Positions 21,121 through 39,464 of a stretch of 39,464 bases of DNA are shown here, one piece after another (position 1 is the first letter of the stretch; each line of letters begins with the position of its first letter). Position numbers and translations under genes: made by a program. The notes beneath the pieces were generated by a model, which worked only from the letters and a program-made list of their open reading frames with translations, made no database searches and was not told the origin of the DNA. The DNA is from an uncultured Candidatus Saccharibacteria bacterium (lineage in GTDB: Bacteria > Patescibacteriota > Minisyncoccia > Phycocordibacterales > UBA918): NCBI GenBank assembly GCA_964432455.1, contig CAYSNO010000001.1, positions 4,883-44,346 on the forward strand. Direction: 5' to 3'.

Positions 21121-21612
21121 CTGCTCATTTCGACCCAGGGCTCGACCCAGAATTGCGGCTATTTACTTCACTTCGCTTACCAGGTCAAAGGACGGGCTCG
21201 GTCACGAGTTACTAAGTCTTTTATTCACTATGTTCATAAAAGTCTAAGTACTCTCGACCCCGACTCGACTGTTTTGCTCCTATCGTCGCAAAACATGTCT
21301 GCGCCTTTCGAGCCCGCACGTGACTGATACTAATTAGTCGGGCCCGGTCACGCTCATGGATATTTTATTTCGTACCTCATAAAATATCTCATTCGCCCGA
21401 CCCGGACTGTTCCGGCCCTAAAAGGGACCCGGAACAGTCTTTCGAGCCAAGGCTCGTCCTGACGGTCACCAAGCTAGATTATTTCACTGCGTTCATAATC
21501 TAGCAGGTGCCGCGGGACACGCCTCACTTGTTTTGGCATTAGGAATAGACAAAACATCGTTCCGGCGTTCGAGCCCGCACGCAACTGAAATTAGTCAGTT
21601 GCTCCCCAAGCA
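21121..21612 (+). repeat. Array of 4 divergent ~90-140-nt structured units containing tRNA T-loop/acceptor-like fragments
   Basis: Recurrent order: hairpin, TTCGAGCC, hairpin, GGTCAC or CCCCAAGCA, then an A/T-clamped hairpin. No credible ORF. See findings. Confidence 0.7.
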
Positions 21613-21665
21613 CAGCATACACAAAAAGCGCCCAATGGCGCTTTTTGTGTATGCTGTGCTTGGGG
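21604..21665. repeat. 29-bp perfect inverted repeat (4-nt loop) overlapping the 3' end of tRNA-Phe; probable terminator
   Basis: CCCCAAGCACAGCATACACAAAAAGCGCC-caat-GGCGCTTTTTGTGTATGCTGTGCTTGGGG. The right arm overlaps the tRNA at 21657-21665. Confidence 0.85.
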
Positions 21666-21729
21666 GCGGGCTCGAACCGCCGACCCCTTCCTCTTCAGGG
21701 AAATGCTCTACCAACTGAGCTACCCAAGC
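21657..21729 (-). tRNA. tRNA-Phe (anticodon GAA), CCA not encoded
   Basis: GCTTGGGTAGCTCAGTTGGTAGAGCA..CTGAAGA..GGCGGTTCGAGCCCGCCCCCAAGCA. Clean cloverleaf. Confidence 0.95.
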
Positions 21730-24187: not shown

Positions 24188-24245
24188 TTTTGTCCCTCAC
24201 TTTCATGCTGTTCCGTGACATACGCTACCAAATTGCCGTACCAAA

Positions 24246-24283
24246 AACAAGCACCGCGTGCCTTTGGCTCGCGGTGCTTGTTT
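24246..24283 (-). terminator. Intrinsic terminator (ancestral valS terminator)
   Basis: AAACAAGCACCGCG...CGCGGTGCTTGTTT. Confidence 0.8.
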
Positions 24284-24289
24284 CTTTAG

Positions 24290-26946: not shown

Positions 26947-28116
26947 TTACAGAGACCGGTTACCGTCGGCGCGGATATAAGCAATCGCGCCAGCACTACG
27001 TGCAGTGGCGAGCTCGGCATGGCCAGCAAGCGCAATCATCACACTATTGTCAGTTGAGAGGTGGCGATGAGGGAGGTAGACCTCGATGTGTGGGTGAGTA
27101 GTGAGAAGTTTTTCGGTAAAGGTCTGACGGAGGAAACTGTTCGCTGAGACACCACCACCGATAATAAGCGTGGCAATACCAAAGTGATCAATCGCCTTTA
27201 CCGTCTTGGTGTACAGTGATTCGATGGCCGCATCTTCAAAATCACGCGCGAGGGCGTTCTTCTCGTCCTCGGTCATGGTCTTGTCGCCAATGGCGTAGCG
27301 GACAGCGGTCTTGAGTCCGGCGTAGGAGAAATCAAAATCATCACTGTGGGTCATTGGTCGCGGGAGGGGTTTCTCGCCATAGGGCGGGAGCTTGGCCTCG
27401 CGCGCAATGGCGGCACGCCGGCCAATCTCGGGTCCACCGGGGTACGGGAGTCCCATGAGACGTGCGACCTTATCAAATGCTTCACCGACGGCATCGTCAC
27501 GGGTCTGACCAATCTTTTCGTACTGACCCCAATTCTTCATGAGAATCAGTTCAGTGTGACCACCAGAGACGAGGAGGGCAAGGGCGGGGAACTGTACAGG
27601 CGCGAGCGCGTCATCGATCTCGACATCATAGAGGGAGGCGAGGATATGCCCCTCCATATGATTGACTGGTATGACCGGGCAGCCGAGTACCTGGGCAAGC
27701 GCCTTCGCGAAACTCACCCCCACCCACAGAGCGGGTTCAAGACCGGGTCCGCTCGTGACTGCAATCATCTGTATCTCAGGGAGACTGTGTGACTGCAAAA
27801 AAGCGATAAGGTCAGGGCCAAGATTGTCCTCGCGACTAAGAGTCTCGAGGAGGGTCGCTTCATCATCAATATCGGTCGTACCTTCTTCAAGGAGCTCGGC
27901 TTCACGCAGCGCTTTTTCGAGCATCGGGACGAGCGTCTTCGCGTGCTCACGCTTAGCGAGTTGTGGGAAGACACCCCCATATTCTTTGTGGAGGTCAACT
28001 TGGGAGAAGAGGGCATTGCCAAGAAGCGTATAGGTCGCGGTCGGGAATTCACCGTCGACCTCGACAAGGCTGACCGCCGTTTCGTCACAACTGGTTTCGA
28101 TTGAGAGTATGCGCAT
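26947..28116 (-). CDS. tsaD: tRNA N6-adenosine threonylcarbamoyltransferase TsaD
   Basis: MRILSIETSCDETAV, HMEGH, GGGVSAN. Carries an extra acidic ~40-50-aa insertion after the first lobe. Confidence 0.95.
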   Translation of the reverse strand: MRILSIETSCDETAVSLVEVDGEFPTATYTLLGNALFSQVDLHKEYGGVFPQLAKREHAKTLVPMLEKALREAELLEEGTTDIDDEATLLETLSREDNLGPDLIAFLQSHSLPEIQMIAVTSGPGLEPALWVGVSFAKALAQVLGCPVIPVNHMEGHILASLYDVEIDDALAPVQFPALALLVSGGHTELILMKNWGQYEKIGQTRDDAVGEAFDKVARLMGLPYPGGPEIGRRAAIAREAKLPPYGEKPLPRPMTHSDDFDFSYAGLKTAVRYAIGDKTMTEDEKNALARDFEDAAIESLYTKTVKAIDHFGIATLIIGGGVSANSFLRQTFTEKLLTTHPHIEVYLPHRHLSTDNSVMIALAGHAELATARSAGAIAYIRADGNRSL

Positions 28117-28285
28117 AAAAATGATGAGAAGGTAGGGATTTGCACCCTACAATAGCATATTACGAGCTGGGGCTGGTTACCCGGGTTTTTCGGGGTTACT
28201 CAATTATGCTCCTACTGTTAACCCTTATTCGGACGGCTACCTATTTCGTCACTTCTCGGCGCTAGTTATACCACGATTTTGACAT

Positions 28286-28480
28286 AAAAAAAGCCCCGCC
28301 GGAAAAGTGGCGGGGTGCTCAAGAGACAACAGGTCTGTGGCGTGGGAGGGTTAGCTCTGTAGCGTGACAGCTTGCTGCACCTTTCCCATCCGTCGACTCT
28401 CATACACTTTTGGTCCTCTGGGCTCCGCTGTTGGCTTGAACCGTAACGTCACTCCAGCCCTGCAAGTTTGCCTCTTGAGC
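28286..28480 (-). ncRNA. Candidate ~195-nt structured sRNA (rod-like; 6S-like by size and shape only)
   Basis: 13-bp closing stem (28468-28480 with 28317-28329) starts at the predicted TSS and ends directly at the terminator CCCCGCC/GGCGGGG plus U7 (28286-28316). Confidence 0.55.
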
Positions 28481-28486
28481 GGTAAT

Positions 28487-28514
28487 AATTTACTCTTTTA
28501 TCATCTCTTGTCAA
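28487..28514 (-). promoter_or_regulatory. Promoter of the candidate sRNA
   Basis: TTGACA (28509-28514), 16 nt, TAAATT (28487-28492), 6-7 nt before the closing stem. Lies just after the TAG stop of the upstream ORF. Confidence 0.5.
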
Positions 28515-28519
28515 TACAA

Positions 28520-29074
28520 CTAATAACGTGACGAGAGTTTGTAGGTTAGCAAAAGAGCTACGCTTACCAAAACTGTCATGGCCAAAAAGAGCGCATCAAA
28601 ACCAAACTGACTGACAATCAGTCCACCCATCGCGGTACCGGTGATGCCGGTGAAAGAAAGAATAATTTCCCAATCAGCGGCCTGAGGTAATTCTTTGTTA
28701 CTATCGAAATTTGTCGCCATAAGCGCACGGAAAGCGGGAGCGTGGAGACCCTCACTGAAGCCAAGTAGTAGCTGGATGATAAATAGTTGTGGTAGGGCAG
28801 TGGCAAAGAAAAAACCCAGGCAGCCCAATATTTTTAGACCATACCCAACTCGGAGGCTATTTTTGGACGTGAGAAAGTGTGCACCAACGAGTCGGGTAAA
28901 CACTGTTCCCACTCCCTTGGCAGCAAAGTAGATGGTGCCAAGTAAAGCAACGGTTTCGATAGTGGCATTAAAATCGGTTGCAAAGAGTGCAAATAGCGGC
29001 GCAAGCATCACACTTGCAAACATAAAAAGACCGTGAGCGAGATAGAGGAAGTACAGCGTCGGGTTGGTTTTCAT
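28520..29074 (-). CDS. Half-size (6-TM) MFS-like membrane protein, possibly truncated
   Basis: 184 aa resembling only the N-terminal six-helix bundle of an MFS transporter. No C-terminal half follows in any frame. Confidence 0.5.
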   Translation of the reverse strand: MKTNPTLYFLYLAHGLFMFASVMLAPLFALFATDFNATIETVALLGTIYFAAKGVGTVFTRLVGAHFLTSKNSLRVGYGLKILGCLGFFFATALPQLFIIQLLLGFSEGLHAPAFRALMATNFDSNKELPQAADWEIILSFTGITGTAMGGLIVSQFGFDALFLAMTVLVSVALLLTYKLSSRY

Positions 29075-29076
29075 TG

Positions 29077-29937
29077 TTATACAATAAACGTAAACGGCAT
29101 GTCCGCAAAGCTGGCGACGCGGATAGCGCTCGCATTTTTGTGACCACCACCACCATACTTTTGTGCCATGACTGAAACATCAACGTCCCCTCGACTGCGT
29201 AGTGATAGCGTCACTGCTCCATGCTTGTGATAGTAGACAATACCAAAGGCACTCCGGCCCTCGGCTTCGTTAATCGCTGCGAGCTGATTGCCGATATGAT
29301 CACGGAAATCTCTCGTCGCGTTTACGGCGTAGACCGTGTGGCCTTCAAAGGACACCAATTCACGTCCAGCGACCATCCCGGCGATGAGACGGTCTTCATA
29401 CTTCGCGAGGAGCGAACCTTTGGCAATAAAGTTGATGAAATTATCTTCATTTTGCAGGGAGGTCGATAGCTCGTCCCAGACCTCGAAGGTCATGGGGTAC
29501 TGATTAAAAGCCACCTTAAACTCACGATATTCAGGCAGAGCATTGTGCCATAAATCATAGTCTTCGACGTAGAGAAGGATAGTTGGTACTGGAGTTTCGG
29601 GGTGAAAGTACTGCCAAGCAAGTACCGCTCCCGAGTGATTGTTATCAAAAATATTCTGCGGGTAGGCACGGACATCGGCCTCGGCACTGACGTGGTGATC
29701 AATGACAACGACACTTTTGTTCGTGTCATTGAGTTGCGCAAGTAGTGGGGCAGAAAATGAAAAGTCGACAATGTAGACTTCTTTGCCTGAGAGTCTCTCT
29801 GGCACAACCCCGTGGTCTTTCCATGGAATATAGGTAGCACTGTCACCAAACTTCTTCCAGGCTGCATAAGCTGCCCCAAATCCATCCGGGCAATCGCCGT
29901 GGTAGACGATGACTGTATCTTTGAGTTCATTTTGCAT
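29077..29937 (-). CDS. DHH/DHHA1-family phosphoesterase (NrnB-like or phosphodiesterase-like)
   Basis: HGDCPDGFGAA, IDHH and GGGGH motifs. TATACT at 29945-29950 lies 7 nt upstream. Confidence 0.8.
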   Translation of the reverse strand: MQNELKDTVIVYHGDCPDGFGAAYAAWKKFGDSATYIPWKDHGVVPERLSGKEVYIVDFSFSAPLLAQLNDTNKSVVVIDHHVSAEADVRAYPQNIFDNNHSGAVLAWQYFHPETPVPTILLYVEDYDLWHNALPEYREFKVAFNQYPMTFEVWDELSTSLQNEDNFINFIAKGSLLAKYEDRLIAGMVAGRELVSFEGHTVYAVNATRDFRDHIGNQLAAINEAEGRSAFGIVYYHKHGAVTLSLRSRGDVDVSVMAQKYGGGGHKNASAIRVASFADMPFTFIV

Positions 29938-38598: not shown

Positions 38599-38665
38599 GG
38601 CAGTAGTATACCGTTTGTTGGTGGTTTTATATAGGATGGGGAAATGGGGGTTGGAAAAGATTTTA

Positions 38666-39199
38666 TTAACTAAAAAGAATTCCAACTACTATCAAGAGAA
38701 TGATTCCAACTACTGCGATACCAGATAGCCAAGAAATTACAGGAAATATTCTCTCTCCAATTTTCTGAAAGCGTGATGACGGTGGTACAGATTCGCCGTT
38801 GATAAAACGAACCGCATAGAGTGATTTAATAGCAAAAAATAAAACAATTGCTGCTAAAAATATATTACTGCCACCTTGTGCATCAGTGATCTTATTATAG
38901 AAAGTTACAATCAAGCTCATGCCTGACAAAGTAATCACAACCCATGCCGTCCATTCCTTCTTTATGTAGCCAAACAGAGAACCTGCAAAAATAGAAATTA
39001 CGCCATCAATCCATGACCCAGGCAAAATAGTAGTTAATAGTATTAAAATGATACCAAGAATAATGAATGTCCAAGCAATGGACATAATCACTTCATATCC
39101 CATTTCTTTTGAGATAATTTTCAATGACCATGCAGAGTTATTGGTATTTGATTTTGAAAATTGATACCAGCGAGGCTTGTGCTCTTGAACTTCATTCAT
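38666..39199 (-). CDS. Hypothetical polytopic membrane protein (AT-rich gene)
   Basis: About 5 TM helices. TGgTATAAT (hexamer 39206-39211) lies 6 nt upstream of ATG 39199. Confidence 0.6.
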   Translation of the reverse strand: MNEVQEHKPRWYQFSKSNTNNSAWSLKIISKEMGYEVIMSIAWTFIILGIILILLTTILPGSWIDGVISIFAGSLFGYIKKEWTAWVVITLSGMSLIVTFYNKITDAQGGSNIFLAAIVLFFAIKSLYAVRFINGESVPPSSRFQKIGERIFPVISWLSGIAVVGIILLIVVGILFS

Positions 39200-39248: not shown

Positions 39249-39410
39249 TACATGTTCAGTACAGGTTGTCGCTATTTTTTATCGCTTCGCTCATAAAAGT
39301 AGCTGGCAACCTTTTCGATTCCCACGTAAACAGTCTCCCAGACTGTTTACTCGTAGGGTCACGCAACAAAAACGGCATCCACTAAAAGTGAATGCTCGTT
39401 TTTGTACACG
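39249..39410 (-). repeat. 160-bp structured mini-element between the tRNA-Glu 3' end and its direct partial copy
   Basis: Contains an inverted tRNA 3'-end copy split by a hairpin (39314-39363), the module shared with 13940-14000, and an A/T-clamped hairpin (39271-39303). Confidence 0.65.
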
Positions 39411-39464
39411 TGACCCTACGGGGAATCGAACCCCGGTTACAGGAATGAGAATCCTGTGTCCTAG
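39411..39464 (-). tRNA. tRNA-Glu (anticodon CTC), 5' part beyond the window; CCA not encoded
   Basis: ..CTAGGACA CAGGA-TTCTCAT-TCCTG TAAC CGGGGTTCGATTCCCCG TAGGGTCA. Resembles canonical tRNA-Glu (GGACAC, GTAAC). Confidence 0.85.

Follow-up and report, generated by a model that had tools for sequence, protein, structure and literature searches.

Several described systems resemble, each in part, the subject of this analysis, a predicted small RNA (sRNA) gene, here called W-type, that lies between the genes of a half-size MFS protein and TsaD in a 39,464-nucleotide (nt) stretch of contig CAYSNO010000001.1 (the window; positions refer to its numbering, and the sRNA gene is read on the minus strand). 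6S RNA (ssrS, RF00013) is encoded by a stand-alone gene, is about 165–190 nt long and has its 5' and 3' ends joined in a long helix, properties that the W-type RNA shares. In 4.5S or small signal recognition particle (SRP) RNA, the precursor of transfer-messenger RNA (tmRNA) and species 1 RNA of phage T4, as in the W-type RNA, a terminal helix is followed by 3' ACC(C) in a layout like that of a tRNA gene; e.g., the 3' end of Escherichia coli 4.5S RNA is ...GCCCCC-ACCC. The sRNAs encoded in genomic islands and type I toxin-antitoxin loci are similarly lineage-restricted, possess their own promoters and terminators, and occupy recombination-prone intergenic spots, with tandem arrangements and frequent loss. 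Miniature inverted-repeat transposable elements (MITEs) and REP-like elements are comparable in the 13-base-pair (bp) terminal inverted repeats, the size of about 165 bp and the presence/absence polymorphism. Finally, bacterial Y RNAs (YrlA) and tRNA-like sRNAs also combine a closed terminal helix with a modular interior, and a tRNA-like RNA adjoins the W-type gene. Judging from sequence comparisons, the W-type RNA belongs to no described family. It is best explained, with a probability of roughly 0.55, as a dispensable, horizontally exchanged, independently transcribed, trans-acting structured sRNA, the ends of which resemble those of a tRNA gene.

The features of the gene are as follows.

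28509–28514, minus strand: -35 hexamer TTGACA, 5 nt past the MFS stop codon, opening the sRNA promoter
28487–28492, minus strand: -10 hexamer TAAATT, separated from the -35 box by a 16-nt spacer (10 of 12 matches in a consensus scan)
28468–28480, minus strand: 5' strand of the terminal helix, GCUCAAGAGGCAA, mean pair probability 0.94
28330–28467, minus strand: W-type interior, 138 nt, with a predicted multibranch fold, including the invariant C-rich stretch AACCCUCCCACGCC
28317–28329, minus strand: 3' strand of the terminal helix, UUGUCUCUUGAGC, which pairs with GCUCAAGAGGCAA
28314–28316, minus strand: ACC, abutting the 3' strand of the helix, similar to the tRNA discriminator plus CC or to the end of 4.5S RNA
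28286–28315, minus strand: intrinsic terminator, reported by the consensus scan
28265–28273, minus strand: tsaD promoter with the extended -10 element TGGTATAAC, the downstream border of the variable position described below, conserved in all relatives

The open reading frame (ORF) of the MFS protein (28520–29074, minus strand) ends with the stop codon TAG at 28522–28520; the sRNA gene begins 5 nt past this codon and lies 170 nt upstream of tsaD. The predicted transcription start is G28480, 6 nt beyond the -10 box, and this G is the first base of the terminal helix, in which GCUCAAGAGGCAA and UUGUCUCUUGAGC form 13 bp, including one G-U pair. The terminator consists of CCCCGCC (28315–28309), an 8-nt loop and GGCGGGG (28300–28294), followed by C and T7 (28292–28286). 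The predicted RNA measures about 165 nt without and about 195 nt with the terminator hairpin. No ORF of 60 or more amino acids overlaps this region, the longest frames being 45 and 33 amino acids on the minus strand and 55 amino acids on the plus strand. An earlier note, drawn up from the sequence alone, had described the promoter, a start near 28480, the terminator, the 13-bp closing helix with its G-U pair and the lack of an ORF of this size, and all these elements were recovered on the minus strand at the same positions. Each shuffle of the 39-kb window yields, over both strands, about one long-range stem of 13 bp or more, so that a 13-bp stem located exactly between a promoter and a terminator is not a chance occurrence.

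These elements are maintained in relatives (loci from other genomes are designated by L numbers). The -35 box is kept in L001 and L109, reads TTGACG in L098 and TTGACT in L089, L099 and L101, and is still present in the remnant found in L094; the terminator stem persists with altered sequence in L001 and L098. The general attributes of a bacterial sRNA gene, namely, a promoter, a terminator, the lack of an ORF, and a terminal helix that is kept in homologs, are all present in the sequence. The proposal of the earlier note, an independent structured sRNA gene of an open class, accordingly draws support from the promoter geometry, the terminator, compensatory changes in the helix, the lack of a conserved ORF, and the lack of a matching Rfam family.

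A search of the whole window against Rfam 15 at the gathering threshold detects only tRNAs, and a search of the 551 nt around the gene (28050–28600) at E<=10 yields only terminator-driven noise, without hits to 6S, SRP, tmRNA, RNase P, Y RNA or riboswitch families. Searches at E<=10 or E<=1 were also run with four relatives, two phage loci and L114; across the window and all these sequences, the output is limited to tRNAs, one RNase P RNA and terminator noise. The W-type RNA is thus unclassified.

The resemblance to 6S RNA proposed in the earlier note, under which the W-type RNA would be a divergent open-promoter mimic that sequesters RNA polymerase, is compatible with the size, the independent gene and the long terminal helix, but breaks down for every testable feature. 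Neither RF00013 nor its clan matches the window at the gathering threshold or the 28050–28600 segment at E<=10. There is no central bubble, and both the minimum-energy and the centroid folds are multibranch. Of the rod of inner helices drawn in the earlier note, only CAGG/CCUG is favored, with a probability of 0.80, whereas UGGAGUG/CACGCCA, GGUU/AACC and AGCG/CGCU have pair probabilities of about 0, and the forced rod is 10.6 kcal/mol less stable than the multibranch minimum (-46.0 versus -56.6 kcal/mol). The absence or replacement of the RNA in very close relatives, with TsaD 94–95% identical, is a poor fit to a housekeeping RNA, and unlike in 6S RNA, the same terminal helix holds unrelated interiors that range from 50 to 200 nt and adopt unrelated folds. 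A 6S identity therefore appears highly improbable.

Other known RNAs were considered and rejected as well. For SRP RNA, RF00169 and RF01854 give no match at E<=10, and the GGGAAAGGUGCAGCAAG stretch lacks a closed tetraloop; for tmRNA, ARAGORN identifies three tRNAs only in the window, and there is no Rfam match. Both results agree with the original reading of the sequence, which saw neither an SRP motif nor the tRNA-like end of a tmRNA. Unlike 4.5S-type RNAs, the W-type RNA has no SRP domain IV motif, is predicted to start already at G1, and is dispensable. It differs from Y RNAs in showing no Y-RNA motif or Rfam hit, with no Rsr/Ro protein encoded among the eight neighboring genes scanned, and from tRNA-like sRNAs in that its interior contains neither a T- nor a D-arm. 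RNase P RNA is not matched in Rfam, and the W-type RNA has no significant similarity to the RNase P RNA of this clade, for which a relative, L005, provides a normal 412-nt class A representative (L005:321–732, 121 bits). Derivation of the sRNA from RNase P RNA was rejected likewise, the matches being short and insignificant.

The window comes from a metagenome-assembled genome of the Paceibacteria/Parcubacteria. A TsaD-based scan of species-representative genomes identified 80 loci, all in metagenome-assembled genomes of Paceibacteria, Parcubacteria, Kaiserbacteria or similar members of the Candidate Phyla Radiation (CPR); the closest TsaD locus is JBKBPM010000001 (95% identical). The genes of a DHH-family phosphoesterase, TsaD and ValS follow one another in this order in a wide range of these relatives. 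The MFS gene is located directly upstream of tsaD in every contig that is long enough, and the DHH gene precedes the MFS gene wherever the contig reaches it; the exception is L083/L084, where a MYG1-family gene takes the place of the DHH gene. In the loci searched with nhmmer and with profiles, four W-type copies were found, those in the window, L109 (97.6% identical), L001 (92.7%) and L098 (93.3%), all located between the MFS gene and the tsaD promoter. Searches of the same kind in all loci reveal no homology between sRNAs of different types, a BLAST search of 50,697 phage genomes is negative for the W-type, BLAST detects no match to the sRNA in plasmids or E. coli genomes, and three exact patterns have no match in IMG/VR.

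The position occupied by the W-type gene is variable. L089 and L099, which are as distant from the window as L098 (about 82–83% nucleotide identity in the MFS gene), carry an X-type RNA of 146–148 nt, and L101 carries a Y-type RNA of 221 nt, both with the same promoter and terminator as the W-type. The outer helix is GCUCAAGAG / CUCUUGAGC in the W-type, GCUCGAGGG / CCCUCGAGU in the X-type, and GCUC-AGGG / CCCU-GAGC in the Y-type. The outer 8–9 bp are homologous among the three types (GCUC..AG.G / C.CU..GAGC), and ACCCC comes next in each. Two pairs have changed in a compensatory manner (A5-U to G-C and A8-U to G-C), and a matched one-base insertion on both strands adds one bp to the X-type relative to the Y-type. 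The interior of the W-type cannot be aligned with those of L089, L099 or L101. Moreover, L099 and L101 are 88–95% identical through the MFS gene, the -35 region, the terminator and tsaD, whereas their interiors (146 versus 221 nt) align at the random level, with sharp borders within the helix. Such borders between conserved flanks and unrelated interiors indicate replacement rather than drift.

The position can also be emptied or filled differently. In L094, only TTGACA, the 3' strand of the helix and the terminator are left, a deletion remnant; the MFS-bearing L083–L088 and L095 have nothing at this position; and among relatives with TsaD 94–95% identical, L115, L116 and L119 retain the terminator only, and L117 and L118 carry a different, 75-nt RNA. 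A type 2 closed-helix RNA occupies the position in L003, L096, L100, L097 and L092, a type 3 RNA in L097 and L092, and further closed-helix RNAs in L005 (187 nt) and L098a/L091 (128 nt), sometimes with two in tandem. The 75-nt type-2 elements (L003:1518–1595, L096, L100, L117, L118, L097:967–1044 and L092:1546–1622) share a conserved core, AAGGAC-hairpin-GUCGGU, and 6 of their 21 pairs are changed on both sides, which shows that the elements at this position are RNA structures. Rfam gives no hit for the L003 copy; ten matches to a type-2 pattern in IMG/VR were discarded as chance hits in coding sequence. Two type-2 copies contain an 11-nt antisense match to RNase P RNA that is not conserved and is probably due to chance. 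The element of L005 (L005:3761–3947), at the DHH-tsaD position of a genome with TsaD 63% identical, has a 14-bp helix followed by ACCA and, in this single sequence, contains a 56-codon UUG ORF with a hydrophobic C-terminus. No interior k-mer motif common to the seven types was detected beyond chance.

This pattern would also be expected of a DNA-level cassette or mobile element, MITE-like or bounded by hairpins, in which the 13-bp inverted repeat is a recombination or transposition end and the RNA has no function. Presence or absence of the element, replacement of entire interiors between 88–95% identical flanks with the borders inside the inverted repeat, the deletion remnant in L094, and the empty position in relatives with nearly identical TsaD are all consistent with such an element. 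So is the mosaic structure of the locus, seen in the nucleotide identities between L001 and the window, namely, 72% for the DHH gene (29077–29937) and 96% for the MFS gene, with 89% for tsaD and 94% for valS, which point to frequent recombination around this position. However, a check for MITEs found no extra copies: none of the cassette types recurs elsewhere in the 39-kb window or in 109 loci, so that the cassette, unlike MITEs, is single-copy in the sampled sequence. No target-site duplication is visible at the cassette borders by eye (no systematic test was made), and there is no transposase or integrase among the eight neighboring genes scanned against Pfam. In addition, the repeat tolerates G-U and yet stays paired on the transcribed strand, that is, pairing is kept at the RNA level, and a precisely placed terminator and a -10 box at the correct spacing come with every cassette. 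The exchange can be accounted for by homologous recombination between the flanks, which are conserved. Taken together, these observations make a functionless DNA cassette unlikely.

An element acting in cis on the flanking genes, either a structured 3' untranslated region or terminator-insulator of the MFS gene or an upstream regulator of tsaD, would account for the location of the W-type gene close to both of them and for the conservation of the terminator U-tract and the tsaD promoter as a single block. Against this, tsaD has its own conserved promoter past the terminator, which is kept in relatives without the RNA; MFS genes with 77–81% identity manage without it; DHH-tsaD loci that have no MFS gene bear analogous RNAs; and a simple hairpin suffices as the terminator in L115 and L119. 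A tsaD riboswitch or cis-acting leader was rejected for the W-type segment given that its terminator appears constitutive and is followed by the separate conserved tsaD promoter; no pairing that would compete with the terminator is seen by eye. A cis role is thus very unlikely.

The W-type RNA does not appear to encode a peptide. No conserved ORF exists among the four copies: a 1-nt indel in L109, L001 and L098 puts a 21-codon UUG frame out of register, and a 45-codon AUG frame is interrupted by UAG after 5 codons in L001 and elsewhere reads through the terminator. The small-ORF explanation was therefore rejected. Type I toxin mRNAs characteristically have paired 5' and 3' ends and come from variable intergenic loci arranged in tandem, and the ORF in the L005 element has a hydrophobic tail, so that the RNA might be an mRNA for a small toxin-like peptide silenced by its end pairing. 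The lack of a conserved small hydrophobic ORF in the W-type, with both frames broken as described, and the fact that inspection by eye of the X, Y, type-2 and type-3 elements reveals no ORF of more than 19 codons argue against this possibility, and unlike in type I toxin-antitoxin loci, neither a peptide ORF nor an antisense partner is present. Furthermore, Shine-Dalgarno-like sequences precede only 2 of the 31 gene starts in the window, and most of these starts have a -10 box (TATACT, TATAAT or TACAAT) 8–10 nt before the ATG, which suggests that the mRNAs are predominantly leaderless. A toxin mRNA hence seems barely credible here. The scarcity of Shine-Dalgarno sequences also led to the rejection of an anti-Shine-Dalgarno seed role for CCCUCCC. 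A further difference from both island-encoded sRNAs and type I loci is that, at this locus, different RNAs are swapped within one conserved terminal helix.

The elements at this position share a distinct layout. In seven elements, three of which are W-type, a -10 box is followed after 6–7 nt by the G at the start of a helix with 10 or more bp, and ACC comes after the 3' strand of this helix. A strict scan of 764 kb (the window and the loci) looked for a helix of 10 bp or more that begins with G, has ACC directly behind it and has a -10-like hexamer 4–9 nt ahead of it. Of the 12 hits, 10 are at this position (the other two are 38599–38872 in the window and L012 2495–2714). In six element types, the -10 box and the G are 6 nt apart; in one type, 7 nt separate them. 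Across the closed-helix elements, the helices are 9–14 bp long, ACC follows nearly all of them, and G-U pairs occur on the transcribed strand. The three tRNA genes of the window are organized similarly: each has its own -10 box, with the 5' end of the tRNA 9–10 nt after it; two of the three (tRNA-Val and tRNA-Arg) end in ACCA; and a clear terminator hairpin follows tRNA-Val and tRNA-Phe. Just downstream of tRNA-Phe, a near-perfect 30-bp hairpin flanked by A and T runs (21603–21666) is probably a bidirectional terminator.

This similarity raises the possibility that the RNA is a decoy in a conflict over the tRNA machinery, the helix opened by G1 and the ACC mimicking an acceptor/T-stem minihelix. 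The target would be RNase P, RNase Z, the CCA-adding enzyme or a tRNA-targeting toxin, and the diverse interiors would be products of an arms race with phages. The terminal helices of 9–14 bp, close in length to the 12-bp acceptor/T stack, followed by ACC, and the tRNA-like gene layout are compatible with such a decoy, as are the overtly tRNA-like adjoining cassette, the core of which is present in phage tRNA clusters (see below), and the fast cassette turnover that is typical of conflict loci. However, a transcript that already starts at G1, as predicted, does not require RNase P; ACC is seldom followed by A; the W-type was detected neither in the 50,697 phage genomes nor, with the three exact patterns, in IMG/VR; and no defense genes are found among the eight neighboring genes scanned against Pfam. 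Both the mimicry itself and the targets and arms race postulated for it are accordingly quite doubtful.

Under the preferred explanation, that of an exchangeable trans-acting sRNA, the W-type is one of several interchangeable small-RNA cassettes that, in one clade of Paceibacteria, are located between the DHH or half-size MFS gene and the tsaD promoter. Transcription would start exactly at the G that opens the 13-bp helix, and ACC and the intrinsic terminator would close the gene. The helix and ACC could serve as a handle for stability or processing that shields the 5' triphosphate and the 3' end, a suggestion prompted by the resemblance of this layout to a tRNA gene and to the end of 4.5S RNA, and might perhaps be read by tRNA-end enzymes. 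The lineage-specific interior would be the working part and would act in trans through binding to a protein or a second RNA. The cassettes come, go and replace one another, apparently through recombination in the conserved flanks, and are accessory rather than housekeeping genes. The sequence comparisons establish the architecture of the gene, the retention of the terminal helix, the exchange of cassettes and their dispensability, whereas expression, the interior fold, the action in trans and any use of tRNA-end enzymes are predictions.

The fold of the 195-nt transcript (-74.4 kcal/mol, z = -2.72) is not equaled in stability by any of 200 shuffled sequences. Among the four W-type copies, 10 of the 16 variable columns are unpaired, and three changes in stems are G-U compatible. 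L098, in which the MFS gene and the 5' end of tsaD are 57% identical to the window at fourfold sites and the promoter spacer is about 60% identical, retains 93% identity in the sRNA body, which may reflect selection or a recent transfer of the segment.

Several observations weigh against the explanation as an exchangeable trans-acting sRNA. The discrete transcript is a prediction read from the sequence, and the fold energies of the two strands are nearly equal (-56.6 kcal/mol for the minus and -54.9 kcal/mol for the plus strand). In the four W-type copies, none of the 51 predicted pairs is changed on both sides, and 2–3 pairs are broken. The sRNA of L001, at 92.7% identity, is no better conserved than the fourfold sites of its MFS gene (95%), so that the high identity of the L098 copy could result from recent transfer rather than from selection. 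The absence of the W-type RNA from genomes with 94–95% identical TsaD implies that any function is dispensable. ACC may be no separate signal because both its C residues are the first bases of the terminator stem. Finally, a crude duplex scan of 33 translation start regions gives no target signal, with 30% of the shuffles scoring equally. Covariation of the kind that would validate the fold thus exists for the terminal helix, in the compensatory changes across the W-, X- and Y-types, but not for the interior, the multibranch fold of which is plausible yet unproven given that the four copies are nearly identical and have no pairs changed on both sides.

The segment between the tsaD promoter and the tsaD start codon contains another structured RNA, related to an element found in phages.

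28125–28257, minus strand: tRNA-like tsaD leader, 133 nt between the tsaD promoter and the ATG, separate from the sRNA
L081:1475–1565, L082:1477–1577 and L102–L108: loci of the phage element, the core of which corresponds to window positions 28183–28239

The leader consists of an acceptor-like helix, GAGAAG/CUUCUC, a D-like arm with GG in the loop, a T-like arm with the loop UGCAAAU, a long helix P4, and a pseudoknot, GGGUUA:UAACCC. In five CPR copies, one of which comes from a genome with TsaD only 62% identical, 95.6% of the alignment cells are paired, and 6 pairs are changed on both sides. Besides the window, the leader is present in L001, L006:2655–2805, L096, L098, L100, L117 and L118, and its presence or absence is independent of the sRNA type. 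Such a leader is exceptional in a genome with otherwise mainly leaderless mRNAs. The CPR-specific loop CCGG(G)UAA resembles the Thr anticodon GGU followed by A37 and A38, a speculative parallel. ARAGORN, run on 28100–28300 with the intron and relaxed options, reports no tRNA or tmRNA.

The 57-nt core of the leader (28183–28239) is 77–86% identical to an unannotated phage element of about 85 nt, which a BLAST search locates in about 50 phage genome records, from enterobacterial phages that include T5-like Demerecviridae, T4-like Straboviridae, Vequintavirinae, Stephanstirmvirinae and RaK2-like jumbo phages. In all nine phages inspected, it is flanked by tRNA genes on one or both sides or is located in the tRNA region. 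It adopts a four-helix, pseudoknotted fold (P1, P2, P3 and the pseudoknot), with 99% of the cells paired and 15 of the 23 pairs changed on both sides, a value reached by none of 500 shuffles. A version of the core with the CPR topology was identified in L114:870–990 (minus strand), a Mu-like viral contig (IMG/VR UViG 2724679707), where P4 closes downstream, an extra hairpin is present, and the element lies between DUF3164 and GemA-like genes rather than near tRNAs. No family of Rfam 15 matches the CPR leader, the phage version or the Mu-like version; BLAST shows the element to be absent from E. coli genomes and plasmids; and a literature search found nothing on the phage element. The phage element may be a new motif of the riboswitch, ribozyme or protein-binding type, and the leader, with its phage counterpart, is better supported as a structured RNA than the W-type sRNA. 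The earlier note had passed over this separate RNA in the next 140 nt, as well as the variability of the cassette position and the lack of covariation in the interior.

Among the neighboring genes, the half-size MFS protein (28520–29074, minus strand) comprises 184 amino acids with 6 transmembrane segments and is represented by nine clusters, formed at 90% identity, that are 71–95% identical; it is a genuine conserved small family and not a fragment of a recent pseudogene. Further long hairpins are located at 24243–24285 and 39350–39422.

A broader hypothesis links the cassette position with its tRNA-like neighbor. Unrelated structured RNAs would be swapped within an acceptor-like helix (G1...ACC) next to a tRNA-like RNA that shares its pseudoknotted core with phage tRNA clusters and a Mu-like phage, a combination for which this interpretation seems a long shot. 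The exchange locus and the neighbor would then exemplify an undescribed class of accessory RNAs directed at the tRNA machinery, which would work as decoys, inhibitors or ribozymes and be passed among CPR bacteria and their mobile elements in host-phage conflict; this is similarly improbable. A literature search found no published work on regulatory or accessory RNAs of CPR bacteria (Patescibacteria). These bacteria have tiny genomes and depend on hosts, and the window is nearly devoid of Shine-Dalgarno sequences. The tRNA-gene-like ends of the sRNA, the exchange of cassettes from strain to strain, and the tRNA-like neighbor with the core shared with phages offer metatranscriptomics and biochemistry testable entry points into this biology. 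If the cassettes are functional, even minimal genomes would keep a fast-evolving RNA “accessory genome”; if they are inert, the locus would still illustrate clearly how a recombination hot spot can mimic RNA genes.

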